Origin: Thermoguttaceae bacterium
Lineage (GTDB): Bacteria > Planctomycetota > Planctomycetia > Pirellulales > Thermoguttaceae
Assembly: GCA_050013075.1 (NCBI GenBank)
Contig: JBEKFZ010000005.1
Coordinates: forward strand, 16,065-80,064
DNA: 64,000 nucleotides
Reading direction: 5' to 3'
Positions 1 through 55,087 of the stretch are shown here, piece after piece. The notes under the pieces were generated by a model, which was not told where the DNA came from, did no database searches, and worked only from the letters and a program-made list of their open reading frames with translations. The first letter of the stretch is position 1, and every line of letters begins with the position of its first letter. The translations under genes were made by a program, and so were the position numbers.

Positions 1-2155
1 AATCGCAGGACAATCCGGCGAAAAGACCGTCGGGATGCCGGGCCAGCCAGAAAATGGTTTCATCCAGCAGGTTGAAAAACGGGCTGCGCAGGACGCCCAA
101 AAGGCTCAGGTGGTCGCAGGAACTTTCCAACGCCCTGAGCAGGTGCAATAGATCGAAAACTTCCTGCTGGGCGTAAAAGGCGTGTCCGCCGACAAGGTAG
201 TAATCGATGCTGTAGCGGCGCAAGGCTTCTTCGTAATATTCCACGTCGGTCAGGGCGCGGAACAACAGTGCGACGTCGCCGGGGCGGACCGGGCGCGTGG
301 CCGGCTTGCCCGCCTTGAAAGCCTCTTGGTCCCAAACAATTCTTTCGCCCGAATCGAGCATGGCGCGTATACGTCTGGCGATCCAATCGGCCTCCCGCCT
401 TCGCCGGCGCTCGGCGGGCGCTTGATCGCGCGTGGTTTCCTCATCAGCGTTATTTAAGAATGCCGCCTGGGCGATTGAAAGCGGATCGGTTGCGCCCGCG
501 TCGGCAATCTTTGTGGAATCAACGGCCCTCACCCTAGCCCTCTCCCGACCAACCTTCGGTCGGTGCCCGGAGAGGGGGCTTTTTTCATCCAAGGAAAGGG
601 AGTGGGGACTGTTTTCGTCCACGGAATCGGCATCGGCCGCCCATAAAAATTCCACGGCCGGCGTTGGGCTAATCTGTGGTTTATGGGCACGTAGGGGTTC
701 GTAATCCTGAAATTTCCCGCCGAACAAGGCGTTGACGAAATCCAAAATCGCCGGCTGGCTGCGAAAATTTAGTGAAAGCGGCAAGCGGCCCTGGGACGGA
801 ATCTGTTCGCCGAGACGGTGAAACACGCGCGGATCCGCGCCGCGGAACCGGTAAATCGATTGCTTGAAATCGCCCACGAAAAATAGTTTGCCCCCGGCGA
901 CTTCGTCGTCGCATAGGGCTTTGACCAGTTCCACCTGCAAGGGATCGGTGTCCTGAAATTCGTCGACCAAAAGCAGTTGCAAATTAGCGGCCCAGTGCTT
1001 GCGGAACTCTTTTTGCTTTGGTCCGACGAGCAGTTTTTTGGCATGGATCAAGAGGTCGTTGAAATCGAGCACGCCTAGGCTTTGTTTTTTGGCTTCGTAG
1101 GCCTGGCCCGCGCCGTCGGCCAGCCGGAGCAATTCGAGGCCGATTTCGGCCGCCGGCCGCGCCGCTTTAGGATCGAAAGATATTCGATCTTTGAAAGCGT
1201 CGATTGTATCGCGTAATGACTTGACCGCCTCGCGATATTTTTCATATAACTCTTCGCTGAGCCAATCTTTTTTCGTGCCGGCGCCCTTTATCATGGTTGC
1301 TTTGCGAAGTTCGGACAACGTGGCCGGCAGGTCGGCGCTTTCGGCCAAGTTGGGCAGATTATCGAGCAAAAATGCCATTTGTGCTTGCATCACCGCATGG
1401 CTGGAAGGATTTTGCCGGGCGATTTCCAATACGGTATTTGCCTCCGGCGAAGCCGCGATGGAACGCATCATGCGGGGCAAGGCTTCACGCCGGTGATAGT
1501 CCTGCCATTTTGCCGCAAGATCTTCGGCGGTTATGGTCCGCCAATAAGGCCAATCGATTTCATGGCGGCGAGCAAGTAGTTGTGCGATCATCTCGCCCAG
1601 TCCGCCGAGGCCGTAGAGCACCGTTAAATCGAGAACCGCTTGGACGGGTTCCGCCAATTTATCGCGGAGTTGATCGCCAATTAATTTGGTCAGCAGCATG
1701 TCGGCCTGGGCCTGATCCAGGACGCGAAACCTGGGGTCCAAGCCGGCTTCGACCGCGTGGCTGCGCAACAGCGAACCGCAGAAGGAATGGATCGTGCTGA
1801 TTCGCGCCGTGTCGATTTCACGGAGCAGTTCCAGCCAATACCCGACGTCCGCTTCAGGACATCCGATCAGCCGATTGCGGCATTTTTCCCGGATGCGGCC
1901 GCGCATTTCCCGGGCGGCACGTTCGGTAAAGGTGATGGCGACCAATTGTCCCAAGCGGGCCGGATCGGGGCCGCCCGGATCCAAATGCGAGAGGAAGCGT
2001 TCGGTCAGAACAAACGTCTTCCCGCAGCCGGCGCCCGCCGAAAGGGCCACGGAAACGTCGCGGGCGGCGATCGCCCGGCGCTGCTGGTCGGTGGGTGGCA
2101 CTGGCTGAGCCAGTGGCACGCGCGGGGGGTCGGATTTTATTGCGTCGGCAGCCAT
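1..2155 (-). CDS. addA: AddA/UvrD-type ATP-dependent helicase(-nuclease) subunit, N-terminal ~718 codons only. The ORF runs off the left edge, so it is absent from the ORF track.
   Basis: Manual translation from ATG at 2155-2153 gives MAADAIKSDPP...VALSAGAGCGKTFVLTERF (Walker A), ITFTERAAREMRGRI and ISTIHSFCGSLL (UvrD-type motifs). I translated 721-180 and ~100 codons from the ATG; neither has a stop (...YYLVGGHAFYAQQEVFDLLHLLRAL...). Openness of the rest is inferred because no minus-strand ORF in this frame appears in the track. The start overlaps the addB stop by 19 nt. Confidence 0.85.
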   Translation of the reverse strand, partial: MAADAIKSDPPRVPLAQPVPPTDQQRRAIAARDVSVALSAGAGCGKTFVLTERFLSHLDPGGPDPARLGQLVAITFTERAAREMRGRIREKCRNRLIGCPEADVGYWLELLREIDTARISTIHSFCGSLLRSHAVEAGLDPRFRVLDQAQADMLLTKLIGDQLRDKLAEPVQAVLDLTVLYGLGGLGEMIAQLLARRHEIDWPYWRTITAEDLAAKWQDYHRREALPRMMRSIAASPEANTVLEIARQNPSSHAVMQAQMAFLLDNLPNLAESADLPATLSELRKATMIKGAGTKKDWLSEELYEKYREAVKSLRDTIDAFKDRISFDPKAARPAAEIGLELLRLADGAGQAYEAKKQSLGVLDFNDLLIHAKKLLVGPKQKEFRKHWAANLQLLLVDEFQDTDPLQVELVKALCDDEVAGGKLFFVGDFKQSIYRFRGADPRVFHRLGEQIPSQGRLPLSLNFRSQPAILDFVNALFGGKFQDYEPLRAHKPQISPTPAVEFLWAADADSVDENSPHSLSLDEKSPLSGHRPKVGRERARVRAVDSTKIADAGATDPLSIAQAAFLNNADEETTRDQAPAERRRRREADWIARRIRAMLDSGERIVWDQEAFKAGKPATRPVRPGDVALLFRALTDVEYYEEALRRYSIDYYLVGGHAFYAQQEVFDLLHLLRALESSCDHLSLLGVLRSPFFNLLDETIFWLARHPDGLFAGLSCD
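538..577. repeat. REP-like nested GC palindrome embedded in frame in addA
   Basis: CCCTCTCC(538-545)/GGAGAGGG(570-577) is the outer stem and CGACC(546-550)/GGTCG(558-562) the inner stem. It translates in the addA frame as ...SPLSGHRPKVGRERARVRA... Confidence 0.6.
2091..2119. repeat. 29-nt repeat copy 1 (inside addA codons)
   Basis: GTGGGTGGCACTGGCTGAGCCAGTGGCAC is identical to 4465-4493. It contains the CACTGG/CCAGTG inverted core. Confidence 0.9.
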
Positions 2156-5100
2156 GTCTTCTCCAAAGAGCGAATCTGCCTGATGCGGCAAAGCGTGCTT
2201 AAAGGGCAATAACTAGTGCAATGTTGATCGAGGTTGAAAACCGGAAACCGGCCGCGACGAATGTTTTGAACCAACGAGGGAATTATTTTCTCCACGTCCA
2301 TGCGTATTGTTTCCCAATTTTCAGATGGCATGACGACATCGTCGCATTGTTCGAACATCACAAGCGATTGTTTCGGCTTGAAGCCGTCCTTGGCGACGTT
2401 CCAATAACCTGCCCGCCAAGGTCTGCAGTCGCGATCGTTCAGAATCAACTTCGCTGCGGCCAAGGCATATAGCGGCAGTTGCAGGGCAGTGCCGCGTTTT
2501 GCTTCGTCGTCGGAGAATTTCAACGATTTGCCGGTTTTATAATCCAGGATATTGAATATGTTTATGCCGGCGATTTTGCCGGCGTCGATGCGGTCGATGC
2601 GTCCGGAAACGCGGATCGATTGTTTTCCGTCGGCAAATTCCAGCGGCTCATCGATTGCAATCGCGTCGGCCTCGCGGTGTTTTGATTCGCCAAATGAGGT
2701 TTCGAAAAACTCCGGAACAAGCGGCTCATCATATTCCGACCACAATTTGTCGTAAGATTCGCACTGCTTGCGGTACTCTGCGAGCCATTTGGCGATCAAG
2801 CGGCGGTTTATTTCCCCAAGCGCGGCGCGAACCGGATTGTTCGACTGCGCGGGGAGCGAATCTTGCAACGCATTTTCAAGCATCCGATCGAACTCGTCCT
2901 GGGCAAGTTCCAGCGGGGAGGCGGGACGTCCGAACGATTCGTTAACCCGGCGATGGAACAAGGCCAATGCCTCATGGACGATCCGACCGCGTTCCAAAGC
3001 GTCCAGTTGCATGGTTATATCTTCCAGCGGCTCCAGTTTCAGGATGTTTTGCAAAAGGAAACGGTAAGGGCAAGAGGCGTACTGCTCCAGTTCGGAGGCG
3101 GTGAAGCATCGCTTGGATGGAAATTCCTTGGCAAGGAGTTTTTGCGCCGGTTTGCCGAGAAATACGCCCTCGGCCGGACCGAAATCCTTGCGATCCTGAC
3201 GGAGAATGATCGTTTCCAATCCGGCCGGTAGATTGGCGATTTTACTTTGCAATAAGCCCGCAAAAAGCGATATGTCGCCGGATGGAGCAAGGGCGTCGGC
3301 TACGGCCTTGACGCGGAATTGGGCTGCTGACAGAGGCTCATCGCCGGCTGGAATAGGGCGAAGATCGGCGGCCGGCGCGCGGACAATTTCCCTACCGCCG
3401 CAAGCCTGTATCACTTCGATAAGGTATGGACTGGGCGAAAGCGGCTGGGCGGCCTCGTCCAAGGACGGATAACTTAAGTACAAACGCCTGGTCGCCCGGG
3501 TTAACGCCTCGTAAAACAACAACATCTCTTCCCGAGCACGTTCCGTCCGCGCGACGAGAGGCAAGCCTTTTTCGATCAGTTCCAGATACTCGGCTTCGCT
3601 GTAGAGCCGTTCCTCGCGGTCGGGCGGGGGGAACGCCTTTTCCGACAATCCAGCCAAAAAAAGATATGGCACTTGCAGCGATCGGACGCTTGCCGCGGAA
3701 AGCACTCGCACCCGGCCCGACTCGTCGTCTACCACGAGCATCCGTTCACTTGCCAATATATCCAGGAGAACTTGAAAGGCCTCCTTGCGATCCAGTTCCT
3801 CGGCACGGCGATGCAACCAGCGGGCAATTTGTTCGCCGGCCGACAGCGCGGTCATCAGGCGATTCCAGGCATTTTTGTCATCCGAATCAGTATCCCGCAA
3901 CAGGCCGATTTCTCGGGCGAGTTTTTCCCAGGCTTTGGCCCATTGCGGCAAGGCGGCTTTTACGGGCAACTCGTCGAATGCGCCCGCCAAACGATTTAGT
4001 ATGCTTAGGGCGGGATTGTCCTCTGATACGGCAGTAAGCTGGTCGAGCAACTGCTTTCGGCCATGGGGAATCTGCAAATTCCGGATGGTTTTTTCCACTA
4101 TCGCGGCCGATTTGCCGGCCTGCCATTCGCACCAGTCGGGCTGGAAATAGTTATTACCTAAAACTCCCAACAGCCCGCGGAAGGGCCAATCGTCCAGATC
4201 CAGTTGCAAGATAGACTTTAGCGCCTGCATTACCGGGATTCGATCCAGCTTTTGTCCCATTTCCCAAGCCGCCGGAATGCCAAGCCGATTGAAGACCTCG
4301 GCGGCCAGTCCGCCGTCGTCTTGCGGGGACCGGAATACGACGGCGATTTCGCCCGGCCGCGCGATCCCTTCCGCTAAAAGCCGTTTAATTCTTGCTCCCA
4401 CAAGTTCCATTTCGCCTTGAGGTTTTGCGGCGGATAGAATTTCGATGCCTTCGGTGTTGGGTGCGTGGGTGGCACTGGCTGAGCCAGTGGCACACGTGCG
4501 GGGATTGATAAACAGGTTTTTTTCCAGATGAATTATGGCCGGCCAGGGAGGATTTTCAGGCCGCGGAAGTTCAATTACCGATAAATTGCTGTGCCGCCGC
4601 TTTAACTCCTTTAATGTTTTAAGCGGCTTGCCGAACAAATCGTTGCGGCAAGGTTCCGACTCCAAGGGCAGGGAAATGATGATTTCGTCGACCCAGCCGG
4701 CAAGCAATTCAAGAATTTCGTGCTGGGTGCGAGTGAAGTCGGTAAATCCGTCGGCAACGGCCAAACGCAGATTTTCAAACGGCCTGCGATGCCCTTGTTG
4801 CAGCCAATCGCGGGCCGACCATAATCGGCCTTCGGCGTCGTACAGTTGATTCTCACGCAGGATAAGTTGATAAGCCTCGTAAAGCTCCAGTAATTCCCGA
4901 TCCTTAGCGGTAAATCCTCGGGCCTGGCACGCGCGGCGAAGATCCTCGGGCCATATTTCCAAGCGTTTCAATTCACTGATTAGTTCGCAGACAAGGTCGA
5001 CCAAACCGCTACTTGAGACGATAGGAAGAAAGTGTCCAATTCGGCCGCGGGCAAGTTGCTCGCCGATCAAATGTCGCACGAGTTGCCGCTTCACGGAACT

Positions 5101-5448
5101 GCTCAAAGGCCGGATCGACCGCGGGGGATTGTCCTGATTTTCCGGGCACCATGCCGGCAGCATGGTCGGCGAAAATGAGACTGTTCCCTTATGACGCATC
5201 GGCTCTGGGAAAGATTCAAGAATGGCTTGAGCGAATTTATCGAAAGTGAAGACGCCCGGTTCCCAACAGGCTTGCAGTTCAGCACCTGGAATGCGATTGC
5301 GCACGTCTGCCGCCGCTCGCCAGGTAGGCGCCAACCATAATACATTTCCCGGTTTGCCGCCGTGCAATGCCGCCCTGTAACGCGAGAGCAAATAGTGTGT
5401 TTTTCCGCTTTGCGCCGGTCCAGTTACAATAATAAGGGAAGCAACCAT
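2137..5448 (-). CDS. addB: AddB-type helicase-nuclease subunit B (PD-(D/E)XK nuclease with Cys cluster)
   Basis: 1103-aa ORF with N-terminal Walker A GPAQSGKTH. The C-terminal nuclease core ILDYKTGK is bracketed by Cys residues (ASCPYRF ... HCTSYCPLSTLC), as in the AddB Fe-S domain. It is translationally overlapped with addA. Confidence 0.85.
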   Translation of the reverse strand: MVASLIIVTGPAQSGKTHYLLSRYRAALHGGKPGNVLWLAPTWRAAADVRNRIPGAELQACWEPGVFTFDKFAQAILESFPEPMRHKGTVSFSPTMLPAWCPENQDNPPRSIRPLSSSVKRQLVRHLIGEQLARGRIGHFLPIVSSSGLVDLVCELISELKRLEIWPEDLRRACQARGFTAKDRELLELYEAYQLILRENQLYDAEGRLWSARDWLQQGHRRPFENLRLAVADGFTDFTRTQHEILELLAGWVDEIIISLPLESEPCRNDLFGKPLKTLKELKRRHSNLSVIELPRPENPPWPAIIHLEKNLFINPRTCATGSASATHAPNTEGIEILSAAKPQGEMELVGARIKRLLAEGIARPGEIAVVFRSPQDDGGLAAEVFNRLGIPAAWEMGQKLDRIPVMQALKSILQLDLDDWPFRGLLGVLGNNYFQPDWCEWQAGKSAAIVEKTIRNLQIPHGRKQLLDQLTAVSEDNPALSILNRLAGAFDELPVKAALPQWAKAWEKLAREIGLLRDTDSDDKNAWNRLMTALSAGEQIARWLHRRAEELDRKEAFQVLLDILASERMLVVDDESGRVRVLSAASVRSLQVPYLFLAGLSEKAFPPPDREERLYSEAEYLELIEKGLPLVARTERAREEMLLFYEALTRATRRLYLSYPSLDEAAQPLSPSPYLIEVIQACGGREIVRAPAADLRPIPAGDEPLSAAQFRVKAVADALAPSGDISLFAGLLQSKIANLPAGLETIILRQDRKDFGPAEGVFLGKPAQKLLAKEFPSKRCFTASELEQYASCPYRFLLQNILKLEPLEDITMQLDALERGRIVHEALALFHRRVNESFGRPASPLELAQDEFDRMLENALQDSLPAQSNNPVRAALGEINRRLIAKWLAEYRKQCESYDKLWSEYDEPLVPEFFETSFGESKHREADAIAIDEPLEFADGKQSIRVSGRIDRIDAGKIAGINIFNILDYKTGKSLKFSDDEAKRGTALQLPLYALAAAKLILNDRDCRPWRAGYWNVAKDGFKPKQSLVMFEQCDDVVMPSENWETIRMDVEKIIPSLVQNIRRGRFPVFNLDQHCTSYCPLSTLCRIRQIRSLEKTWLPTQ
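4465..4493. repeat. 29-nt repeat copy 2 (inside addB codons, different reading frame)
   Basis: Identical to 2091-2119. Here it encodes ...ATGSASATHA..., whereas in addA it encodes ...VPLAQPVPPT... Confidence 0.9.
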
Positions 5449-5696
5449 GTGAATAATTGTGGCTCTTCCGGTTTATTGTAAGAAAGTTTGACAACATTGT
5501 AAGTGTATTGGCTACTATAAGTTTTATTTATAGAAGCAACAGTGATAATTATGTAACAAAAAATACGATGTGTATCATAAATGGACATAATTGACATGGT
5601 TAGTAAAAAACCGGCAGTATTGGTCGTATTGATCGGAACACTGGGATTGGCAGCAAGTTGTAATAGTTCGATTATTAAAAATTATTGAAAAACCCT

Positions 5697-5726
5697 TTGA
5701 CAAAGTAGTAGCCGATAACATAGAAT
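5697..5726 (+). promoter_or_regulatory. Possible sigma70-like promoter for the DUF1559 gene
   Basis: TTGACA (5697-5702), an 18-nt spacer, then TAGAAT (5721-5726), in an AT-rich intergenic region about 180 nt upstream of the ATG at 5909. Confidence 0.3.
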
Positions 5727-5908
5727 CAGAGGCGTCGGGGAAGAGTGTTAAAAATCTTCCTGCGCGTACTGGGACGAGAAGTGACGGCAGTATAATACTG
5801 CGGAGTTGCCTCATTTCCATTATTGTGTATGTGTAGTATGTAGTCTGCGGCGGTGGTCGCCGCGGATATTTACCGTTTTTATCTTTTTATTTTTATGGAG
5901 GTGGTCTT

Positions 5909-7048
5909 ATGAAAAATTATTCGAGGAAGAGGGGTTTCACCCTCGTGGAATTGCTGGTGGTGATTGCCATCATCGGCATTTTGATCGCCTTGCTTTTGCC
6001 GGCGATCCAAGCGGCGCGTGAAGCTGCACGGCGGGCGGCCTGCATCAACAATTTGAAGCAGATTGGTTTGGCCTTTCACAATTATCACGACGCCAACCAT
6101 CATTTTCCACCGTCCGCGAGAAACGCGTATACCAACGGCACCAGAATAATCTGTGGGCCTAGTCATCTCTTATTGTTACTCCCCATGATGGAGTATGGAG
6201 CAATGTATGACACGTTGAATACTAGTTACGTGCTCAAGAACTCGAATATGGGCACTAATGCGAATTGGGTGTATGTCTGCACTGACTCCAACATGATGAC
6301 CGCACGCGACACCCTAATCCCGGAACTGGCATGTCCAAGCAATCCTAATAGTTTATACCTGAACTCAACTGGTGGCGCGGGAAGCAGAATCGCCTTTACC
6401 AACTATAAGGCCATGGGCGCGTCGAATATGATAAGTTTGTCCGCTTGCTTATCTACCGCTGGAGTTACTCCTTACCCTAACGGCGGAGTTACAGGAGCCA
6501 CAACACCAGATGGCGCCATTTACCCAGCAGGTACTGGAAATAATATATCCGCTCTCATCGATGGCACTGCTCACACAATCATAAGTGTGGAAACCATGGA
6601 TTTTTCAGGTAACCCTGCAACGCCGTCAACTGCTACCAGCGCTTGGTTTGCCGGCACATCCGCCACTCTTGCAGGCGTGCCCACAAACACTGGCACAGCC
6701 CAAATTACTTACCAGGCAGCGAGCGCAACCGGATTTCCTTTCGTTGCTCCGAACACTTTTAATGGGAAATATTACGAAGACGCTTCGACATATATCCAGG
6801 GATTGCGTACGTATTTGGCATACGATTTCCCGGGTACTGACAAAGGAAAATACCCTGACCCCAACACCCCTGTGGTAGGCGCCTGGATTGCAAACATGTA
6901 CGGCCCTTCGTCAGGACATCCGACCGTGGTGAACCATTTGATGGGAGATGGGGCGGTACACACCGTTAGGAAAGATGTCGACTTTGCCATGTACTTCTTT
7001 GCCATTACCAGGAATAACGGCGATCCCGCCCCGGACTTTGAACGATAA
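5909..7048 (+). CDS. DUF1559 family protein with prepilin-type N-terminal cleavage/methylation motif (H-X9-DG protein)
   Basis: [35 protein letters not shown] at the N-terminus. C-terminal [12 protein letters not shown] matches H-X9-DG. GGAGGTG Shine-Dalgarno sequence just upstream. Confidence 0.9.
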
Positions 7049-7330: not shown

Positions 7331-7569
7331 CTTTACGGCATTTGGCCCGATTGGACCAAAGTATACATCCTGCCCGTTAATTCGGACACGGGCTTACCCA
7401 GAAGCCTTGTGAGGTTAGATAAGAGGGGATTTTTTACAAGGACATGGCATAAATGCGACTCCTTTCAGGAGTTTCATGGTAGGTTTACCACGAAATCCCG
7501 TACTGTTGAGCCGCACTTTCCGGCATGGAAAGAAGTTCCTAAGTCTAGGGACCGGCTGGATTTATGTTA

Positions 7570-7586
7570 AAGTCGGGGCGACTGGA
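7570..7586. repeat. 17-bp relic of the tRNA-Pro 3' end (old att site)
   Basis: AAGTCGGGGCGACTGGA is identical to 55010-55026. The upstream TTTATGT also matches 55002-55008, with one substitution and one extra base between. Confidence 0.7.
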
Positions 7587-7865
7587 CGCCAGTAGAACTT
7601 TTTCTGCGGGGTGCCGCGTCCATCGAAGCCCATATCCGACGCCTCATCCTTGCCTTCGTCCAAGGCACCCGACCCCCACATTAGAGCGGATTGTTGTTGG
7701 ACTGGTAAATGCCGGCTCTAGTGAAACCGGCGGCCGCGAGCCGTGGAGCCGACCATCGGCGGCCGCGGCGTCCCGACAGGGTAACGCATTTCCCAAACCC
7801 TTACCGATCATCCGACAATACCGGCGGATCGAAAATCGGTTTGACCCCCGCGTGATGATACTTCT

Positions 7866-10661
7866 CTACTGAGTGTCGGGGTTGTTGGCAACAGTAGTCG
7901 CCAGTATGCGAGACGACCGACTCCATCGCTTCATTACGGCATCAAGTCCCGTTTTGCCGGAAAGCAAAAATCGGAGTAGACTGCGCCCGTTGTACCTACA
8001 AGTCTCCACCACGCTCAACATAACGAGCGCCTCATTCAGTGAATGCTCGGTGAACAACCCTTCGCCTGTCCGTTTGTATTTTGCAAAGCTCTTCGCCGCA
8101 TGTTCAGCGCTATTGTTGTTCCAAGGTACCCCGTCGAAGTCCAAGAACGTGAACAGCCTATCCCCGTATTTTCGGAATCGCTTTTGGTACCGCAAAGCCA
8201 CTTCTGAACCGAAAGGCGTCTGACGCACGCGCTCAATAAACTCTATTGCGATGCTCCTGTGTTTGTGCAAATGCCGCTTCTTCAGCCCATAGCGGTCAAT
8301 AGTGTCGATGATCCCGCGCAGGACTCTTCCGAACTCACCGGCAATCTCCTTGAACTCCTCATCAAAAGGGCTGTTTTTTAAGTCGTCATTGAAGTCCCTC
8401 AAAAGGTGCAGAAGGCACTTTTGCTGTGGACAGTCAATGCTGTCGTATGCGCTGTAGAAGTCCGAGATTAGCACACCATGAAAGTCCGCCAGCATTTCCT
8501 TTAGAAAATCCCCAGAACGCGACTCCTTGTAGAGATACCATACTGCATCAAGCGTAGCAAATATCCACACGTAACCTTTGGTCTTTCTAATCGCCACATC
8601 TGTCTCATCAATATGAAGGACTGGGCTTGCGAGAATGTGTTGACGAATCTCCTCGTATAGCCCCGTAAACGATGCGATAACTTGCCGCTTAAAACCATAC
8701 AGCCTGTTCCTATCAATGTTGATCCCAAAGAGGTCGTACAGGGTGGAGCCGACTGTTGACATGTTCTCTCTGCACGCGAAATTCAGATACACACACCATC
8801 TTGCCAAGTTGTCTCCATGCCTTTTCCGCGACTCGGGCCACTCGGCTGGCAGAAACGTTTTCCTACATCGTTTGCAGAGGTACCGATTGGATACGTATTC
8901 AACTACCCATCGCTTTACCCCGCCTGGTGAAAATCGCAGATCGGCAACACGCCGACGAACTCTGGCGCAAGGTTTTATCTTCCTGCTGTTGCAGTGCGAG
9001 CAGCGCTTGCACACTAGGTCGATGCGCTTGTTCACCCGGAGCTTTCGTGCTTTTCTCTTCTTGGCTCTTTCGATGCTTGCGATCCTTCGATTTGTGCGTA
9101 AGAACACCCTTTCGCGTTGATAGTCAAAATACGCGCATTCGCTTGCTCGTTCAAGGTCTTTCAACACAAATGTCGGTCTACCCCATCTACGAGAAGCCTT
9201 TGCGAGCTGGCTCGTATGGATGACGCTCGATTGCTCAGCACCCGACAAGGCAGGCTGGTTTTCTGTGGTAGCTGTGGAGTGGATAAAGTCGCAAATCGTC
9301 TTTAGAGCTGCGCAGTCGTCTTGGTTGTACTTGATGAGCCGCCGTTTCAGGGATAGATCACCGCTTTGTTTCCATTGCTCGCGCCAGATGATACTTTGGA
9401 TACCTGTCGCATTCGAGTCAGTCCACTTGAATCCAAGGTACGTGGCGATGTCCTTGAGACTGTTAGAATGGATTGGGAAGTATATCTGTGAACTGACAAG
9501 CGTAAGGACGTTCGTTGATGCTTTTACAAACCTTTCCAGGATTGGTCCGAACTGCGGCTGGCAAATGCGGCGGGCGCGCTTGAGTGCTGTGGCATCGTAG
9601 CTTCCAAAATGGAATAGGTGAGCATCCGGGAAGCTGGAAACCGTTTCGCCGAACTTCTCAAAGATGGATGCTTGTTCCTCCTCAGAGTCGGCCCAGAGGG
9701 TGTGGTACTCGTCTCTATTCTGATGGACAACCAGCATCCCAATGAGGTAATAGAAATCGGGATTGGGAAGCCCCTCAATATCATAATAGATGGCTGGGCT
9801 AGCCGGAGGGAGGCGTGGTGTGCCATGCACATGAACTTTCTGTGTGCGTAATGCCAATGCTTGGAGGCTGAATTGGTGAGGCTTCGGCGGTCTTTTTGCT
9901 CGCTTTGATGGCTTTCGATAGCGGTAAGTGTAGGAAAGCTGGTTTACGGTGAAGATGCCCTTCCGATTCTGAGCGGCGATTTCACGTTCCGTCATTCCAC
10001 CGAGTAGGCTCAGGTCGTCGGAGGCGATGGCCTCGTTCCGACAGCGTGTACGGTATTCGCACACCGAGCAATGCTGGTTTAGAATACGTGGCGGAACTGC
10101 ATCCGGGTTGGAATATGCCTGAACAGTTGCTATTAACTGGCGTACACGTTTTTGCAGTCCAAACAGCTTAACCCTGCGGGAAGAATGAGTCGGTCCGAAG
10201 ATTATGGTACCATAGCTGGGAATATGCCCTTGCAGTTCGCCAATCGCCAAGCTCTTGAATGCCAACAGGAGTGTTGCAGCTCTCGTGGGCACGTCATGGT
10301 AGCATAGCTGAATGGGCTGATAGAGAAATTCACCGAGAGGAGATGTGCCAGTCACTCTTTGAATCGCATCAATAGTTGCTGATAGATGCGACACACGTAT
10401 TTTTGCGTTGAGTATTAGCGGTTTCCCTTTCTGTAGCGTATGGACGGTAAGTGGTGGGCTTTTAAGAACGTCGGTGTCCTGATGCTGGCTTAGCCATTGG
10501 CCTTCAACTAACTGGCAGTAGGCGATGCGTTGGGCGGCGCAATGTCGCTCGAAATCGGAGGGTTCGCCGACTGTGTTGTTGATCGTCAGGTACGCCTTGT
10601 ACCGGCAATGAAGTAGCGCTTCAAGGGCGGCGTCATTGACTAAAGGGGTGTGTTGTGCCAC
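7866..10661 (-). CDS. Fusion protein: N-terminal RecB-like/TM0106-type nuclease plus RNase H-like exonuclease module, joined to a C-terminal IS66-family DDE transposase
   Basis: N-terminal part: Cys at LHCRYKAYL plus QHCSVCEYRTRC (Cas4/RecB-like 4-Cys), an HhH-like LSLLGGMTEREIAAQ, and YYDIEGLP...FHFGSYD...YNQDDCAALK (DEDD-like RNase H fold). C-terminal part: Zn ribbon CKRCSHC...CKRCRKTF, then HIDETDVAIRKTKGYVWIFA...VLISDFYSAYD...QQKCLLHLLRDF (IS66 DDE signature). Confidence 0.75.
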   Translation of the reverse strand: MAQHTPLVNDAALEALLHCRYKAYLTINNTVGEPSDFERHCAAQRIAYCQLVEGQWLSQHQDTDVLKSPPLTVHTLQKGKPLILNAKIRVSHLSATIDAIQRVTGTSPLGEFLYQPIQLCYHDVPTRAATLLLAFKSLAIGELQGHIPSYGTIIFGPTHSSRRVKLFGLQKRVRQLIATVQAYSNPDAVPPRILNQHCSVCEYRTRCRNEAIASDDLSLLGGMTEREIAAQNRKGIFTVNQLSYTYRYRKPSKRAKRPPKPHQFSLQALALRTQKVHVHGTPRLPPASPAIYYDIEGLPNPDFYYLIGMLVVHQNRDEYHTLWADSEEEQASIFEKFGETVSSFPDAHLFHFGSYDATALKRARRICQPQFGPILERFVKASTNVLTLVSSQIYFPIHSNSLKDIATYLGFKWTDSNATGIQSIIWREQWKQSGDLSLKRRLIKYNQDDCAALKTICDFIHSTATTENQPALSGAEQSSVIHTSQLAKASRRWGRPTFVLKDLERASECAYFDYQRERVFLRTNRRIASIERAKKRKARKLRVNKRIDLVCKRCSHCNSRKIKPCARVRRRVADLRFSPGGVKRWVVEYVSNRYLCKRCRKTFLPAEWPESRKRHGDNLARWCVYLNFACRENMSTVGSTLYDLFGINIDRNRLYGFKRQVIASFTGLYEEIRQHILASPVLHIDETDVAIRKTKGYVWIFATLDAVWYLYKESRSGDFLKEMLADFHGVLISDFYSAYDSIDCPQQKCLLHLLRDFNDDLKNSPFDEEFKEIAGEFGRVLRGIIDTIDRYGLKKRHLHKHRSIAIEFIERVRQTPFGSEVALRYQKRFRKYGDRLFTFLDFDGVPWNNNSAEHAAKSFAKYKRTGEGLFTEHSLNEALVMLSVVETCRYNGRSLLRFLLSGKTGLDAVMKRWSRSSRILATTVANNPDTQ

Positions 10662-10988
10662 GATTCACCTCAACTGGACAGAAAAAGAGAATGTCGTGTA
10701 CTCAGACGATTCTGTTCTCCTAGCCAGCCCAAGCGTTGGACCCGGCGGCGGTATGATCCTGTGGTCATGCGAACCCGTCAACGAAAGAAGAGGGCATCGA
10801 ACTAGGCCCGCTCCAGGAACCCCGGCGAAGGGGCGCAAGAGAACAGTACCCAGCCGACACCCCCAAGGCGGGGGCGCGGTCTAAGCACTGCTTCTCTTAC
10901 TCAAGGGTCTGCGTAGACCCTCGTTCGCCGTTTTCCTGGAAGCAGTAACCTGACGCTGCGCGTCAATTTCGAGTTGTGCTGTTAGTTT

Positions 10989-11531
10989 ATGTCGTGTTGG
11001 CCCCCGCTGCAATCCCCAGCCGCGTGCGCGGCCGAAGAGGGACCCTCCCCCGTTGCGCCAGCGGCCCATAGACGGCCGCGTACTGTGGGCATGGTGACTT
11101 TCGACGTGCCTTCTCTCTCCATCGACGCTAGGGGCCTTGGCAGCGGCGGATTGAAAAAACTCGGCACGGGCATGCTGACCCTTTCGGACAATGCCACCTA
11201 CTTGGGCGACACCACAATCGACAGCGGCTGCCTGCAACTAAACGGCGCCAACTCAGTGCTGCACACCATTACCGGCGCCGGCAACCTCGGCGTGGGCAAC
11301 GGAGTCATTCCTTCCATGCTCACCGCCGATAGCGTCCAAGTGGGCACACTGACTATCGGCGCCGGCTCGATATTGACCATCGCACCCATTCCCGGCGGCC
11401 CACTTGCAGAAAGAAACTCATTGACTTCGGTTCCGGAGCCATCGGTTTGGGCAATGCTCATGCTAGCCGCTATGGGACTGGGAATTTATAGGTGTCGCTG
11501 TCACTGTTGCATCAAGTCATCCCTTTTTTAG
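10989..11531 (+). pseudogene. 3' fragment of an autotransporter-beta-strand-repeat / PEP-CTERM protein gene (passenger region missing)
   Basis: In-frame TAG two codons upstream of the ATG. Only the last ~140 aa look genuine: GTGMLTLSDNATYLGDTTIDSGCLQL repeats plus the VPEPSVWAMLMLAAMGLGIYRCR anchor. Compare the intact 541-aa paralogue-like gene at 33643-35265. Confidence 0.6.
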
Positions 11532-12003
11532 GAATGCCAATTATCCACCGATTTCTCGGACGGACTGGCCGCCCAATTTTCCATGCGTCGGACCGGGGAG
11601 CCCCGGGTCGTTGCCGACCCGGGGCTCCCACAGATCCGTGCTCGCATTAGAGCATACGGTTATGGCGTTACATAATAGAGTTGGCAGCCCAGGGTGTAGA
11701 GCCTACGCCCGCGAATCTTGCGGGGCTTTATCGCCGTGATGGTGTCGAATTTCCATCGGCTGACATTGGCGAGTTGATGGGTGCCGCGTGTGCAACGTCC
11801 GCAACGGCCCCGCAACACGCCCTGCCACTTTGACCAAAACGTGGCCCGGCAGTGGCGGACCAGTGACGCTATGTGTGTTGTCCGCATAGCAGCCAGTAGT
11901 CGGCAATGGTCTACGGCGAATTAGGCCACCAGGTAGCGAATCCTTGAAATTATCTGTTTTGAACTTCCGCCTCGAAGACGCAACTCTAATCCGCACAATA
12001 AGA

Positions 12004-12038
12004 AAGCCCTTCGACATGCTTGCCGAAGGGCTTATTTT
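12004..12038 (+). terminator. Hairpin/terminator abutting the 44-bp att repeat
   Basis: AAGCCCTTCG (12004-12013) pairs with CGAAGGGCTT (12024-12033) and is followed by ATTTT. Confidence 0.45.
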
Positions 12039-12045
12039 GAACAAC

Positions 12046-12089
12046 AGTCGGGGCGACTGGATTTGAACCAGCGACCTCTTGGTCCCGAA
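12046..12089. repeat. Distal att direct repeat (44 bp = 3' half of tRNA-Pro)
   Basis: AGTCGGGGCGACTGGATTTGAACCAGCGACCTCTTGGTCCCGAA is identical to 55011-55054. Confidence 0.9.
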
Positions 12090-23943: not shown

Positions 23944-25692
23944 CTAACGCCTAGTCTTCTTGATGCTTTCATCGAGAGCATGTTTTACTTCAAGGAATCT
24001 CTTGCTTGAGCCACCGCAAATGCCGCCTCTTAATGGGGGCCAATTGTCTCCGCACCTTTTTTGTTCAGTCTCGATTTCTCCCACGATGTTACCAGCGTCG
24101 GGATACCAAAACTGCCTTCCAAATCGGCCAATCGGCATGTCTTTTATGTTGTATATATCGCCATAACATATTGCAGACAAGTATTCATATCGGTCAAACA
24201 GCTTCTCATAGCGTCGGTCGTCGGGTTCGATAGCTCGGAGCGGATTACGCAGGAGTCTGTACAGGTAGTCACTGACAGCGACGTTGCTTTGAGTTCCTGC
24301 TGCAACCTGGAATGTCCTCCTGAAGTCCCACAATGCTGTTAGAATCCCGGCTGCTTTTTCCTCGACCCGTTGTCTGTGAAGCGTCAGTGACGCAATAGTA
24401 ACGTTTGAGAGTAGGCTGCTCAACAGGCCATAATCTTCGGCGGCTACCGCTGCTAGGCCACCCCCGTACAAAAGAAGCAGGGGGGGATAATGCGTCAGAT
24501 CGGGGTCACCTACGAAATTGAGTTCCTCTATCGACGGGCTGCTTATCCATTCGAGAGATCGAATCCACAGTTGATGATGCGGGGGCTTGCCCCAACGGCA
24601 ACCATGAATGAAAAGATGTAGTAGTGTGTCCACACGAGTCTCGTACTGCTCCAGGCGGTGCTTAATAGAATCCGGGGTATCTGTGCATGTTTTTCTTAGG
24701 AAGTCTTGGTCTAACACGGCTCGACGAGTTCTCTCAGTCTCCTCATCGATTAGATCGTGCAGTCTGATTGCGTGTTTATTTTCGACTATGTATCGTTTCA
24801 GAGTTGCGACAGCCACCTTGGCCGTCATTGGATGAGGCTGTGTCAGGTCGTCCAGACTAATCACCTTTTCGGTTAGCTGGGGAAAGAACGAGTCTGCCCC
24901 CGACGTTGAGAGGACTACAGCCCTCCGCAAAGCAATGAGGGGCTTTGCTAATTCAATCGGCTCGCTTCTGGAAACCCAATAGGTGGTGAATCTGTGTCCT
25001 TTGCACCGCTCCAACGCTGCTCGGAGTGCCGTGTCCCATTCAGCCGACCACCCGCACACGATTAGGCCATACTCGTCGAAGATTCGATCGAGTAGGCTAT
25101 TGGTCCGATCATCGTACTTCTCCAACTCATGCGGGGCATTCTTGATGCGGGTGTCGAGGTAATCACCATGAACTTTGAATACAGTGCAGCGAGCATGGGC
25201 AAGTGGCAAAGCCCCTTCAATGGCGTCTGGTGAAGCTATCACTTGAGGCTGAACTCCCACCTCTTCAAGTGCCTTTTCCATTAGTTTATCAAAGTTAGTT
25301 GTAACAATAACTTTGATGAAACCATGTTCAACCAGAGAAGCCACTGCCCGATGAGCGGGTGTGGGAACCTTCTTTCCTTCTTCTCTTTCCTCTGGTGTTG
25401 GCTCGAAATAGGGTCTTAAAAGTTGATTCCGTTCGCTGGGGGATTTAGCGAGTTCATCTAGGAGAATAGAGTAATCAGGATCTTTCCCGAATGATGTTCT
25501 AAACCATGCTGCGGGATCTGGTTCACAGTCCTCTTTTTTCAGATGTGCCAACTTTCGAGTGAGGTCGAGGACTATTTCCCAACCTGTTGGTATTCCTGCC
25601 GACCTGGACACCCCAGAACCGAGTAGCACAGCATAGCAACCTTTGTTCGAATGAATAGTGATTGCTAAAGAAAGCATTGGGTCCATTAGCAA
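23944..25692 (-). CDS. SIR2-like (SIR2_2 type) protein with ~300-aa unassigned helical C-terminal domain
   Basis: GSGVSRSAGIPTGWEI, VTTNFDKLMEKAL and VFKVHGDY are motifs typical of bacterial defence-associated sirtuin-like NADase domains. Confidence 0.75.
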   Translation of the reverse strand: MLMDPMLSLAITIHSNKGCYAVLLGSGVSRSAGIPTGWEIVLDLTRKLAHLKKEDCEPDPAAWFRTSFGKDPDYSILLDELAKSPSERNQLLRPYFEPTPEEREEGKKVPTPAHRAVASLVEHGFIKVIVTTNFDKLMEKALEEVGVQPQVIASPDAIEGALPLAHARCTVFKVHGDYLDTRIKNAPHELEKYDDRTNSLLDRIFDEYGLIVCGWSAEWDTALRAALERCKGHRFTTYWVSRSEPIELAKPLIALRRAVVLSTSGADSFFPQLTEKVISLDDLTQPHPMTAKVAVATLKRYIVENKHAIRLHDLIDEETERTRRAVLDQDFLRKTCTDTPDSIKHRLEQYETRVDTLLHLFIHGCRWGKPPHHQLWIRSLEWISSPSIEELNFVGDPDLTHYPPLLLLYGGGLAAVAAEDYGLLSSLLSNVTIASLTLHRQRVEEKAAGILTALWDFRRTFQVAAGTQSNVAVSDYLYRLLRNPLRAIEPDDRRYEKLFDRYEYLSAICYGDIYNIKDMPIGRFGRQFWYPDAGNIVGEIETEQKRCGDNWPPLRGGICGGSSKRFLEVKHALDESIKKTRR

Positions 25693-29300: not shown

Positions 29301-29510
29301 TTCCGAGGGCAGATCAGGATTCAATCTCTCCAATGCCGCACGCAGTCGTGGTACAAGGATTACTTCCCCACTGGTTTCCCGCCCTAATGTTCCTTGTTCG
29401 CCAAAAGTTTCGTTGTAGCAATTGGCGGTTTCGTATTCTAAATCACTGAATAAGGCAATTGCGGGTTGTTCGACTAAGGCATCTTCGGAGTAGTTGGTAT
29501 GGGAAACCAT
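26304..29510 (-). CDS. hsdR: Type I restriction enzyme R subunit
   Basis: 1068 aa with Walker A TQGSGKSFSM and DEAH box IVIADEAHRSQ. Downstream of hsdM-hsdS. Confidence 0.9.
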   Translation of the reverse strand: MVSHTNYSEDALVEQPAIALFSDLEYETANCYNETFGEQGTLGRETSGEVILVPRLRAALERLNPDLPSEAISFAIEELGKDRSMMSPAQANREVYKLLKNRFNPSLQSEEDEENDEKVKIIDWNNPENNDFFLASQFWVSGEIYKRRADLVGFINGLPLIFIELKKSHSRLENAYKHNLRDYKNTIPQLFWYNAFIILSNGSEAKVGSITAGWEHFADWKRINDEGEQGVVSLETMIRGTCEKTRFLDIVENFIVFEEAKGGLIKLVAKNHQYLGVNKAINALDEIQHNQGKLGVFWHTQGSGKSFSMVFFSQKVLRKVPGNWTFVVVTDRDDLDDQIAKNFKNTGAVTEEHIQATSGDHLKQLLTEDHRQIFTLIQKFHTNKGEKYDKLSDRSDIIVIADEAHRSQYDTFALNMRNALPNAAFIAFTGTPLMAGEEKTKKVFGDYVSIYNFRQSIEDGATVPLFYENRIPELQLTNEHLKEDLEDLIEAADLDEEQQKKLERTFAREYHLITRDDRLEKVAEDLVSHFMGRGVSDKGMVVCIDRFTAVKMYDKVQKYWKAYLGDLKARLAVCDVLERPDLIAKIKFMEETDMAVVISSAQNEVEEFQKKGLDIETHRKRMIKEDLETKFKDPSDPFRIVFVCAMWMTGFDAPCVSTIYLDKPMRNHTLMQTIARANRVFGEKNNGLIVDYVGVFRDLQKALAIYGSAAGGGVKEGETPVQDKEELIKALRVAIDEANHFCQKRGVSIEPIINSAGFQRVAFLDDAAANLVDKQVVAAVDDAVEKVIVNDELKKQFILLANDVVRLYKAILPDHAANEFAPIKACFAVLMEKIRSFLPEVSVEEVMVGVEQLLDESISPTGYEIKDSDETSIIDLGKIDFEGLKDRFTKGRKRTEAEKLKRRISGRIQQMVRLNKSRIDYLETFKQLIDEYNSGLDVQIFFDRLLAFAKDLSEEEQRGVAEQLSEEELAVFDILTKPEIEMTDAEINQVKKAAKGLLETLKTGKLVLDWRKKQQARADVLRTVEMVLDESLPRAYTPELFRAKCDLIYRHIYDSYYGEERSIYAGVA

Positions 29511-29525
29511 CGGATATTCCTCATG

Positions 29526-54934: not shown

Positions 54935-55012
54935 TTTTGCTTTGTTTTCGGGCCGCACTTCCGACCGTCGGAAGGTATCGTAAGTTACGATTCGGCAAGT
55001 CTTTATGTCAAG

Positions 55013-55087
55013 TCGGGGCGACTGGATTTGAACCAGCGACCTCTTGGTCCCGAACCAAGCGCTCTAGCCAGGCTGAGCTACGCCCCG
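55013..55087 (-). tRNA. tRNA-Pro(CGG); CCA not encoded; integration target
   Basis: Reverse complement folds as CGGGGCG-TA-GCTC-AGCCTGGCTA-GAGC-G-CTTGG-TTCGGGA-CCAAG-AGGTC-GCTGG-TTCAAAT-CCAGT-CGCCCCG-A, 75 nt. Confidence 0.9.

Follow-up and report, generated by a model that had tools for sequence, protein, structure and literature searches.

The gene at positions 7866..10661 (minus strand) of the window, a 64,000-nucleotide stretch of DNA from a Thermoguttaceae bacterium, is a real fusion of 931 residues in which a DNA-end-processing module is joined to an IS66-type transposase. The gene is no canonical IS66 element and does not appear to serve a self-bounded insertion sequence as its transposase. 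The window copy appears to be cargo of an islet that is gained and lost by site-specific recombination, and not to move on its own. With no transposon ends and a place as island cargo, the gene therefore looks like a recruited transposase, not a jumping insertion sequence. We incline, with modest confidence, to the reading that the protein is a transposase-derived, island-borne DNA-end enzyme, not a self-mobile insertion sequence, and that the window copy is cargo of DNA integrated at tRNA-Pro. An earlier note on this DNA had offered a distinct transposition mechanism or a domesticated enzyme; the evidence leans to a domesticated or recruited enzyme as against a self-bounded IS66 element, and the fusion, then thought unusual, belongs to a widespread family. 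This family is large, already annotated automatically yet uncharacterised, and the fusion is no one-off.

Integrity and domain architecture

The open reading frame listing of the window gives a sole, intact frame at 7866..10661, complete from a GTG start to a TAG stop at 7866-7868. A ribosome-binding block, GAGGTGAATC (10662..10672, minus strand), lies directly 5' of the start codon, with GAGGTG 5 nt upstream of the GTG. The ribosome site and start are kept in the 72-73% relatives L010 and L011, and the DNA similarity of the window gene to these relatives starts only at this block. The identical 931-residue protein occurs on three independent contigs, and the domain junction is spanned by metagenome contigs from four runs. 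Both halves are found together in more than 120 full-length homologues of 900-970 residues, and the junction region recurs in 451 or more clusters (50% identity); the fusion is therefore not an artefact. The concern that assembly or a frameshift had joined two adjacent genes has next to no probability and was rejected, given three assemblies, four runs across the junction, the homologues and clusters just named and conserved linker motifs.

Both halves of the protein were matched in profile searches. TIGR03491 (TM0106) covered residues 8-460 along model positions 1-462 of 462 (E 3e-72, 244 bits; cut-off 97), and PF13482 (RNase_H_2) covered residues 291-458 (E 1e-26). In the C-terminal half, NF033517 (transpos_IS66) matched residues 534-899 over model positions 4-380 of 387 (E 1e-54, 186 bits; cut-off 180) and PF03050 (DDE_Tnp_IS66) matched residues 642-862 (E 2e-30). 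The Pfam search of the fusion protein gave no match to PF13005 (zf-IS66) or PF13007 (LZ) at E <= 0.1, and the IS66_C model was likewise unmatched. The proposal of a single frame fusing a TM0106-type module to an IS66 DDE domain was upheld by the HMMs, the family alignment, an AlphaFold model (mean pLDDT 83.8) and Foldseek, which agree. The motifs quoted for it are all present, namely the cysteine pattern, YYDIEG (residue 292), FHFGSYD (350), YNQDDC (445), HIDETD (683) and SDFYSAYD (733), as are QQKCLLHLLRD (746) and NNSAEH (849). Among 123 non-redundant family copies, the Fe-S cysteines, the DEDDy residues, the zinc-ribbon cysteines and the DDE residues are 97-100% conserved. Purifying selection is seen in each of four protein parts (dN/dS 0.12-0.26).

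The Cas4/RecB-like domain (residues 8-215; 10017..10640, minus strand, as are all the domains below) was delimited from the TIGR03491 match, motif comparison, conservation counts and Foldseek. It carries the four-cysteine signature of a predicted Fe-S cluster, C19 ... C198-x2-C201-x5-C207, each cysteine being kept in 120-123 of the 123 copies. Its PD-(D/E)xK motifs have decayed: where the canonical DTK has its D and K, the protein has Q118 and C120, and there is no QxxxY. Other family copies also have non-acidic, non-lysine residues at these two positions, the fusion family has L..K where the canonical proteins have QLxxY, and the motif II aspartate is retained in just 56 of 123. By comparison, canonical TM0106-helicase proteins have D(FL), EVxDTK and QLxxY. 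With these catalytic motifs lost, the domain is therefore probably dead as a nuclease; the architecture of the 'nuclease' module described earlier stands, and the RecB/Cas4-like activity implied by that name does not. Foldseek matched the domain to Cas4 (8d3l, E 2e-5) and also to 4ic1 and 4r5q, among hits to Cas4/Dna2. A helix-hairpin-helix (HhH)-like segment with a basic linker follows (residues 216-262; 9876..10016), which the family alignment defines and in which L219, L220, K234, G235, F237, Q241, L242 and S243 are invariant.

The DnaQ-like DEDDy 3'-5' exonuclease domain (residues 264-466; 9264..9872) rests on the PF13482 match, its motifs and conservation, and its catalytic D294, E296, D/E356, Y445 and D449 are present in 123 of 123 copies. 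Foldseek matched it weakly to the Cas2-DnaQ domain 8h18 (E 0.045). In the alignment and the model a low-confidence linker (residues 467-545; 9027..9263), with a family-specific AYFDYQR motif at residue 510, leads to a four-cysteine zinc ribbon (residues 546-600; 8862..9026). The alignment, the model and conservation support the ribbon, with C557 in 120 of 123 copies and C554, C596 and C599 in all; of the zf-IS66-like ribbon first described, the conserved cysteines are there and the match to PF13005 is not. The IS66-type DDE transposase domain (residues 601-905; 7947..8861), which contains an alpha-helical insertion, is defined by HMMs, conservation and Foldseek. Its triad D685, D734 and E853 is present in 123 of 123 copies, the QQKC..H..RD motif is retained, and Foldseek matched the C-terminal half to the ISCth4 transposase (E 2e-8) and to Hermes. 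According to the alignment and the model the tail (residues 906-931; 7869..7946) is not conserved, and similarity to the closest relatives stops inside it.

The tRNA-Pro islet

An intact tRNA-Pro(cgg) gene (55012..55087, minus strand) is the integration target, and a tyrosine integrase gene (53671-54894, minus strand) lies beside it. The integrase belongs to a 43-kb island that also encodes a primase, a terminase, a type I R-M system and a SIR2-like gene. At the other end of this island, a 44-nt exact copy of the tRNA-Pro(cgg) 3' part (12046..12089, minus strand) pairs with 55011-55054 and forms the att repeat between island and islet. On its distal side the islet is closed by a further att repeat, in which 16 nt of the tRNA-Pro 3' end are copied exactly (7571..7586, minus strand). 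The 4.46-kb islet bracketed by these repeats (7587..12045) holds a PATR/PEP-CTERM gene (10989-11531, plus strand) and the fusion gene, with no integrase among its open reading frames. The exact 16-nt core is found at 7571-7586, 12046-12061 and 55011-55026, against a chance expectation of 0 matches.

The strain presence/absence breakpoint falls at the repeat 7571-7586, and co-occurring strains appear to lack the islet exactly at this repeat. Run X17 shows three continuations of the flank that ends at 7586: the islet (depth 12.4), the tRNA-Pro body (depth 9) and, from 7581, another tRNA (depth 25). Runs X2 and X3 have a diverged end of the islet behind a different flank, from 7565. It is suggestive that islet presence and absence among related strains break at the att repeat, absence having been read from assembled contigs, which are better at showing presence. 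The 4.5-kb islet with the fusion gene would thus form the distal part of DNA that integrated into the tRNA-Pro 3' end, and would move by site-specific recombination; an integrase lies in the neighbouring 43-kb island.

Insertion-sequence hallmarks and family context

Canonical IS66 elements have terminal inverted repeats (TIRs) of about 15-30 bp, an 8-bp target-site duplication (TSD) and tnpA and tnpB genes; members of the ISBst12 group have a single open reading frame and no tnpA/tnpB. No inverted-repeat pair convincingly brackets the fusion frame in the window, as had been noted by eye, and in 59-60 loci the top-scoring inverted repeat that pairs the left flank with the right one scores the same as the cross-locus null. 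Within 5 kb, one of 40 long-flank loci (L052) rose above the null. Family loci show no excess of direct repeats or hairpins, no enriched terminal k-mer and no GTAAGCG-type motif, TAAGCG being at background frequency. The 8-bp TSD that had been expected is missing from L185/L186, the only 98%-identical pair whose flanks are unrelated both left and right; its ends are sharp, with no TIR and no TSD at either copy. No element ends could be defined around the window copy. The lack of accessory genes also held: no tnpA/tnpB-like frame adjoins the window gene, and neither the 83 loci nor the 127 flanking frames contain a recurrent neighbour. The copy count proposed in the earlier note gave a single copy, since contig depth over the frame equals that of single-copy flanks in four runs. 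Identical proteins occur in one context only per population, the contexts are stable across samples, and genomes with several copies hold divergent paralogues.

The family is found in Planctomycetota, Acidobacteriota, Cyanobacteria, Proteobacteria, Nitrospirota, Omnitrophota and others, with a patchy distribution over more than 10 phyla that includes two archaeal MAGs; no member was found on 2.9 million viral contigs. The surroundings of the gene differ between copies and contain many mobile-element genes, such as tyrosine recombinases, toxin-antitoxin pairs and one three-recombinase element. Some copies lie in variable islands beside integrases, ImmA/DUF4411 genes or toxin-antitoxin genes, and the neighbours are a mixed set, with 138 Pfam families represented in the 127 flanking frames. 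Some copies are syntenic over the long term: in L060 and L068 the fusion gene abuts recG, with a dS of 0.68 for recG and of 1.39 for the fusion gene (dN/dS 0.12).

Possible, though on the improbable side, is an autonomous and unconventional single-gene transposon whose mobile unit barely exceeds the frame and whose ends are non-inverted or too short to detect. In such an element the exonuclease and Fe-S module would process donor or target ends, and insertion would be preferred beside resident copies. This agrees with pairs in unrelated flanks whose similarity is confined to the frame, reaching about 10-60 nt upstream and 5-45 nt downstream: L010/L011, L011/L106, L104/L105, L016/L020/L080, L018/L019 and L040/L046. 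Several pairs at 88-98% nucleotide identity in unrelated flanks lose similarity within about 10-60 nt of the frame ends. One 2801-nt contig consists of a family gene alone, 17 nt preceding it and 42 nt following it. Divergent paralogues stand head-to-tail on the same strand in eight loci (L004, L010, L022, L041, L049 with three copies, L057, L120 and L145), in some cases with gaps of no more than about 20 nt; L180 also has a partial same-strand copy about 1.6 kb upstream, and L179 is the only case of opposite orientation. Array partners are nearer to copies in other genomes than to one another. Split reading frames occur in about ten loci, and truncated copies also exist. The patchy spread and the invariant DDE and exonuclease residues fit this alternative as well.

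Several of these observations count against the preferred reading of a recruited enzyme. An active transposase would need the invariant DDE triad equally, the sharp loss of similarity near the frame ends resembles a discrete gene-sized mobile unit, divergent paralogues form head-to-tail arrays, and split frames are as in decaying selfish elements. That no defence-system model matched, apart from weak Cas4 hits, also weighs against it. Against the single-gene transposon, specific ends and target duplications were found neither in about 60-110 loci nor in L185/L186; to our knowledge, every characterised DDE transposase family needs specific ends and leaves target duplications. Copies are also single per population in stable contexts, the recG synteny persists at a dS of about 0.7-1.4, and the window copy comes and goes with the att-bounded islet. 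The window copy and L011 differ by a dS of 1.6, and the loss of flank similarity in that pair is therefore uninformative.

Proposed role and nearest known systems

The recruited-enzyme reading begins from a protein in which the N-terminal module of TM0106-type proteins is joined to a zinc ribbon and a DDE domain predicted to be catalytically intact. A DNA end or flap would be held by the HhH segment together with the Cas4-like Fe-S domain, which is probably dead as a nuclease, the exonuclease would trim the 3' strand, and the ribbon and DDE domain would cleave DNA or join the resulting 3'-OH. The role would plausibly lie in conflicts between mobile elements or in island-DNA processing rather than in transposition of the gene itself, the enzyme being kept by selection on mobile islands. 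The family keeps intact DDE and 3'-5' exonuclease sites under purifying selection without any of the DNA hallmarks of an insertion sequence. Documented domestications of bacterial transposases are few (Cas1 from casposons, Cas9 and Cas12 from IscB/TnpB), and these proved important.

The module resembles the TM0106 family (TIGR03491/COG2251) in having a four-cysteine Cas4-like domain, an HhH segment and a PF13482 exonuclease with the same order and motifs. Three canonical members were sampled; each has about 1100 residues, ends in an SF1 helicase and keeps the D, DTK and QxxxY motifs, whereas the fusion has a DDE transposase in the helicase's place and has lost the nuclease motifs. Cas4-Cas1 and Cas2-DnaQ fusions similarly couple a Cas4 fold and a DnaQ-like exonuclease to an integrase-type enzyme, although the analogy is functional only: the integrase-type part here is a DDE enzyme and not Cas1, and the Cas4-like site appears dead. 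The Cas4 equivalog TIGR00372 scored 18 bits (cut-off 65), and no cas genes or CRISPR array were seen nearby or among the neighbours. Tn7 TnsA-TnsB likewise combines a restriction-endonuclease-fold domain with a DDE transposase. TnsA is catalytically active and cuts 5' ends, and Tn7 has elaborate ends and 5-bp duplications. In the fusion, by contrast, the PD-(D/E)xK site is lost and the predicted active accessory is the 3'-5' exonuclease. In structure the C-terminal half comes closest to IS256-family ISCth4 and hAT Hermes, with which it shares an RNase-H-fold DDE core interrupted by an all-alpha insertion; these two are only 12-14% identical to it in sequence, are members of other families and use inverted-repeat ends.

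It is rather unlikely that the family is a new prokaryotic DDE machine without inverted-repeat ends, selfish or domesticated. In one version, a gene-sized selfish element would insert next to resident copies in head-to-tail order, through a mechanism not yet described that leaves no target duplication. In the other, a domesticated enzyme would capture, trim and integrate, its Cas4-like end binder and DnaQ-like trimmer feeding 3'-OH ends to a DDE integrase; by analogy, it would be a transposase-based counterpart of Cas4/DnaQ-assisted spacer integration by Cas1-Cas2. An enzyme that cut or joined ends without inverted repeats would be a new enzymatic tool, and would provide a test case for the recruitment of transposases by other mobile elements.

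We consider it doubtful that the protein is a dedicated anti-phage or anti-plasmid effector, in which the Fe-S domain and exonuclease would sense or process foreign ends and the DDE domain would be the killing nuclease. The variable islands with toxin-antitoxin, integrase and ImmA/DUF4411 genes, the type I R-M and SIR2-like genes of the window island and the absence from viral contigs point that way. Canonical TM0106-helicase relatives lie on plasmids beside WYL regulators and HEPN, SbcCD-like, dGTPase and ubiquitin-like genes, and arrays of divergent paralogues are common in defence islands. However, the defence-system models of PADLOC gave nothing beyond weak Cas4 matches (E 5e-4 to 7e-3), no partner gene is conserved in the 83 loci, and the neighbours are heterogeneous.

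An ordinary, single-frame IS66 element of the ISBst12 type, with inverted repeats missed or decayed, is very improbable. The fusion does share with IS66 TnpC the DDE_Tnp_IS66 domain, the D685/D734/E853 triad, the QxKCxxHxxRD motif and an upstream cysteine ribbon, it passes the NF033517 cut-off (186 against 180 bits) and matches PF03050, and, like the ISBst12 group, it lacks tnpA/tnpB. It differs from TnpC in its TM0106 module, which adds about 480 residues at the N-terminus, and from IS66 elements in having no TIRs, 8-bp duplication, conserved termini or multicopy state. The null-level repeat scores come from about 60 loci and not from the window alone, and the C-terminal half is only about 25% identical to annotated plasmid IS66 transposases. 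With no TIRs, TSD or terminal motif around a single-copy gene, an ordinary IS66 insertion sequence was largely refuted. The IS66 transposition mechanism is poorly known, and its study could gain from a soluble relative that has end-processing domains built into its single chain. The pipeline names 'IS66 family transposase' and 'TM0106 family nuclease' are both misleading, the first inflating insertion-sequence counts and the second naming a motif that is probably dead. Four such genes were tallied as IS66 copies in Ca. Solibacter usitatus in a 2012 table (PMC3469429), a count that speaks for the ordinary element.

Domains and active sites of the fusion protein

The fusion gene is a single ORF at 7866-10661 on the reverse strand, which encodes 931 amino acids from a GTG start with a GAGGTG ribosome site 5 nt upstream. 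The earlier note had described a nuclease and exonuclease module joined to an IS66-type DDE transposase. Each motif quoted there is present in the ORF at its place, HMM searches matched both halves, and this domain-level reading was correct; the finding is real. Residues 8-460 matched the full length (1-462 of 462) of the NCBIfam model for the TM0106 family RecB-like putative nuclease (TIGR03491; E 3e-72, 244 bits against a cut-off of 97), and residues 534-899 matched the IS66 family transposase model (NF033517; E 1e-54, 186 bits against a cut-off of 180). Similarly, the Pfam domains PF13482 (RNase_H_2) and PF03050 (DDE_Tnp_IS66) were found at amino acids 291-458 (E 1e-26) and 642-862 (E 2e-30) respectively. 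By HMM, the protein is a member of both the IS66 transposase and the TM0106 families.

An AlphaFold model, for which a 26-sequence alignment was the input, had a mean pLDDT of 83.8 and contained well-predicted separate domains and a low-confidence linker (amino acids 467-545). In Foldseek searches, the C-terminal half resembled the IS256-family ISCth4 transposase (E 2e-8) and Hermes, and the N-terminus resembled Cas4 (E 2e-5), SSO0001 and Dna2.

Residue conservation was counted over 123 full-length copies dereplicated at 95 %. The exonuclease residues (D294, E296, D/E356, Y445 and D449) and the DDE triad (D685, D734 and E853) are kept in all 123, and the Fe-S cysteines (C19, C198, C201 and C207) and the Zn ribbon (C554, C557, C596 and C599) in 120-123. 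The DEDDy exonuclease and the DDE domain are thus strictly constrained. The gene is under purifying selection, with a pairwise dN/dS of 0.12-0.26 for the whole protein and below 0.35 in each of four parts. One metatranscriptome contained a few fragments, all from the 5' half of the gene, which are weak evidence for its transcription.

The N-terminal half was also aligned with three canonical TM0106 proteins from plasmids, in which the RecB/Cas4 motifs are present (the D in GxxDFL, EVxDTK and QLxxY). At those places the fusion family has Y114-Q-P-I-Q118-L-C120 and L..K instead. The motif II aspartate, D98, occurs in 56 of the 123 copies and is replaced by His in 46; the DxK acid and lysine are Q118 and C120 in the window copy, at positions unconserved in the 26-sequence family alignment. 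Because these PD-(D/E)xK residues are lost or unconserved in the fusion family, the Cas4-like domain most likely binds DNA as an Fe-S domain without catalytic activity. Judged by its residues, the protein has a dead PD-(D/E)xK site, fails the catalytic definition of a RecB/Cas4 nuclease, and retains intact exonuclease and DDE sites.

The explanation preferred overall, with slightly better than an even chance of being right, is that the fusion protein is a recruited transposase-derived DNA-end enzyme carried on islands. The Fe-S domain and HhH segment would grip the end or a flap of the DNA, trimming of the 3' strand would fall to the DEDDy domain, and the DDE domain would either cut DNA or join it using the 3'-OH. 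The DDE core is like that of IS66 TnpC. The N-terminal end-processing module is like that of the TM0106 nuclease-helicases, although the three canonical TM0106 proteins are about 1100 aa long with a C-terminal SF1 helicase. Tn7 TnsA+TnsB, a nuclease with a DDE enzyme, and Cas4/DnaQ-assisted Cas1-Cas2 integration are functional analogies and imply no membership.

The tRNA-Pro island and its islet

The window copy shares a 4.46-kb islet (7587-12045) with a single other gene, a PATR/PEP-CTERM gene, and the islet lies between two partial repeats of a tRNA-Pro(cgg). The intact tRNA is located at 55012-55087 on the reverse strand. Exact repeats of its 3' 44 nt and its last 16 nt are found on the same strand at 12046-12089 and 7571-7586 respectively, with 0.00 chance matches expected for the shorter one. 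The intact tRNA and the 44-nt repeat bound an integrated element of about 43 kb (12046-55087), in which GC drops to 0.41-0.49. This element encodes a tyrosine integrase beside the tRNA (53671-54894), a D5-type primase (49383-52235), the large terminase gpA (38790-40820), a type I R-M system, hsdRSM (26304-32353), and a SIR2-like gene (23944-25692).

The window copy is thus in the position of island cargo. On contigs of metagenome run X17, the chromosomal flank to 7586 has three alternative continuations. One is the islet, at depth 12.4; another is the tRNA-Pro body (TTTGAACCAGCGA), at depth 9; and the third, which departs at 7581, is the T-arm of another tRNA, at depth 25. Runs X2 and X3 contain a copy of the islet end with 7 % divergence, which starts at 7565 behind a different flank. 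These junctions in assembled contigs therefore suggest that the window copy comes and goes as cargo of att-bounded DNA at tRNA-Pro. Adjacency to a tRNA was rejected as a family-wide target; a tRNA was present in 5 of 85 loci within the flanks (up to 5-6 kb per side), and none was adjacent.

An Rfam search of the window from 5 to 13.5 kb returned tRNA-Leu only. A weak, sub-threshold Rfam match to F6 sRNA came from a perfect 15-bp palindrome (GGGAGCCCCGGGTCG / CGACCCGGGGCTCCC; 11596-11629) shortly downstream of the PATR/PEP-CTERM gene; the match is probably due to chance, and a terminator hairpin is more likely. Also, a 1103-aa ORF on the reverse strand (2137-5448) encodes a P-loop motif (GPAQSGKT) in its N-terminal part and a cluster of cysteines, C-x3-C-x5-C, in its C-terminal part (HCTSYCPLSTLC). 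It looks like an AddB-type helicase-nuclease subunit and is a candidate for an unrelated second Fe-S nuclease-fold protein, 2.4 kb from the fusion gene. Metagenome depth is very high at 5734-6201, over the prepilin-type (N_methyl) N-terminal part of a DUF1559-like gene (5909-7048), because of many community paralogues; this pattern fits a Planctomycetota-type host.

Mobility, neighbourhoods and insertion-sequence hallmarks

Several features of the family look like those of a selfish gene. In pairs at 80-98 % nucleotide identity, similarity is lost within about 10-60 nt before the ORF and 5-45 nt after it, one 2801-nt contig consists of nothing but the fusion gene, and about ten loci contain split frames. 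Close same-strand arrays of two or three divergent paralogues occur in eight loci of relatives (L004, L010, L022, L041, L049 x3, L057, L120 and L145), sometimes spaced by about 20 nt or less, with partners less close to one another than to copies from other genomes. In L180, a partial copy lies about 1.6 kb upstream on the same strand, and L179 is the single case of paired copies in opposite orientation. The ORF-sized units of similarity and the head-to-tail arrays argue for an unconventional autonomous element without terminal inverted repeats (TIRs), which is a possible, if unlikely, reading. Features that fit a resident gene were also found. In two Acidobacteriota MAGs (L060, 5016-9954; L068, 2929-8002), recG and the fusion gene are direct neighbours on one strand, an adjacency kept over a dS of about 0.7-1.4 (0.68 for recG and 1.39 for the fusion gene, dN/dS 0.12), and L043 and L061 share synteny on both sides at a dS of about 1.

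Paralogues in the head-to-tail arrays of L049 (4965-12694), L145 (768-6408), L004 (1-5931) and L041 (682-6685) are 33-63 % identical, and a distinct subfamily (L004 copy 1, L041 copy 2, L010 copy 2 and L075) is repeatedly one partner of such pairs. In L088, a Bacteroidetes MAG contig, a 2.1-kb direct repeat (1-2091 and 7980-10072, 97.6 % identity) brackets a family member together with some 2.9 kb of further DNA.

Neighbours across the family include VapC/PIN, HigBA-like and MazE pairs, tyrosine recombinases and ImmA/DUF4411, and such neighbourhoods are typical of flexible islands. In L193-L197 (about 3360-5870), the family member adjoins a row of three phage-integrase-family (tyrosine recombinase) genes that are encoded on the opposite strand and arranged as in a recombinase-in-trio element. 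This island context is the one point in favour of a dedicated defence effector, which is improbable. The only matches to defence-system models were weak ones to Cas4, and no relatives were found on 2.9 million viral contigs. A defence role overlaps the preferred DNA-end enzyme as one of its possible roles. The canonical TM0106 proteins on plasmids (L092, 1805-7410; L093, 174-7221), which are nuclease-exonuclease-SF1 helicase fusions of about 1100 aa, are encoded beside WYL regulators among HEPN, DUF3883, SbcCD-like, dGTPase and ubiquitin-like/ThiF genes, and these neighbours hint that defence islands may be the setting of the TM0106 family as a whole.

An ordinary IS66 element whose ends were missed is very improbable; all DNA-level tests for an insertion sequence were negative, and its hallmarks are absent. 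Inverted repeats around the window ORF were chance-level pairs only, and the lack of TIRs that the earlier note had reported by eye held for 59-60 loci as well. In these, the best ungapped left/right pair (windows -300..+30 versus -30..+300, and also -120..+60 versus -250..+100) followed the score distribution of a null of flanks paired across different loci (mean 8.4 observed and 8.1 null, both maxima 11.5). A search to 5 kb on each side of 40 loci gave a single isolated 27-nt pair, at L052. Direct repeats and terminal hairpins at the gene ends showed no excess, no shared terminal motif was enriched at both ends by k-mer analysis, and the IS66-like TAAGCG occurred there at background frequency. 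A candidate end motif of L021 and L023, GCAAATA..AGCGG, which a stretch of L185 at its left end resembles, was rejected as not recurrent.

No recurring family of partner genes emerged from all-against-all BLASTP of the flanking ORFs. The 127 nearest-neighbour ORFs matched 138 different Pfam families, the commonest being phage integrase in four, with no conserved partner among them. A 166-aa ORF upstream in L021 and L023 had no Pfam match and was likewise rejected as not recurrent. By metagenome contig depth, the copy count suggested earlier gave one copy for the window gene. Identical proteins from many samples have one context each, as did all five relatives in contig look-ups for multi-context copies (P0110, P0099, P0053, P0307 and P0284).

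The most informative pair for element ends is L185 and L186, which share 98 % identity across 3197 nt. The shared stretch runs from 193 nt before the ORF to 224 nt after it, and it has sharp boundaries and unrelated DNA past both ends. These ends carry neither a TIR nor the duplicated target that the earlier note had proposed to look for. A filled and empty site comparison of L145 and L178 was rejected; here 113 nt are replaced by 4.2 kb, the surroundings are a mosaic of remnants of mobile elements, and no clean insertion is visible. The comparison of the window copy with L010 and L011 was also rejected as evidence for its ends, because at a saturated dS of 1.6 the loss of flank similarity to these 72-73 % relatives is uninformative. 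In TIRs, target-site duplication and copies, the fusion gene fails the element-level definition of IS66. The point of interest is this complete absence of transposon ends versus a perfectly conserved transposase active site.

Size and distribution of the family

That the fusion is an artefact is scarcely credible; an identical protein is present on three independent contigs, the domain junction is crossed by contigs of four peat metagenome runs at the depth of the flanks, and two-domain relatives are many. A word-indexed search gave 1119 relatives, the best 120 of which are mostly 900-970 aa long, share 40-72 % identity and all contain both Pfam domains. A search with the junction only (query amino acids 432-640 against 1.84 billion cluster representatives, E <= 1e-10) identified 451 clusters, with the match at about 425-640 in full-length proteins, and scanning a single genome from each GTDB species identified at least 545 relatives. 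Among the matches listed, the hosts are Planctomycetota, Acidobacteriota, Cyanobacteria (including Acaryochloris marina), Nitrospirota, Omnitrophota, Proteobacteria (Paraburkholderia, Cupriavidus and Polaromonas), one Parcubacteria MAG and two archaeal MAGs.

The relatives are named "predicted RecB family nuclease", "TM0106 family RecB-like putative nuclease" or "IS66 family transposase" in databases. A literature search found no description of the fusion apart from a table row in a 2012 survey (PMC3469429), where four "transposase IS66" genes of Ca. Solibacter usitatus are entered with pfam03050 and COG2251 and are uncommented. The fusion gene is no curiosity of the window; the family to which it belongs is large and unstudied. 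Two relatives, P0087 (1279 aa) and P0109 (1302 aa), contain the full fusion plus C-terminal PF13808 (DDE_Tnp_1_assoc) and PF14236 (DUF4338) domains.
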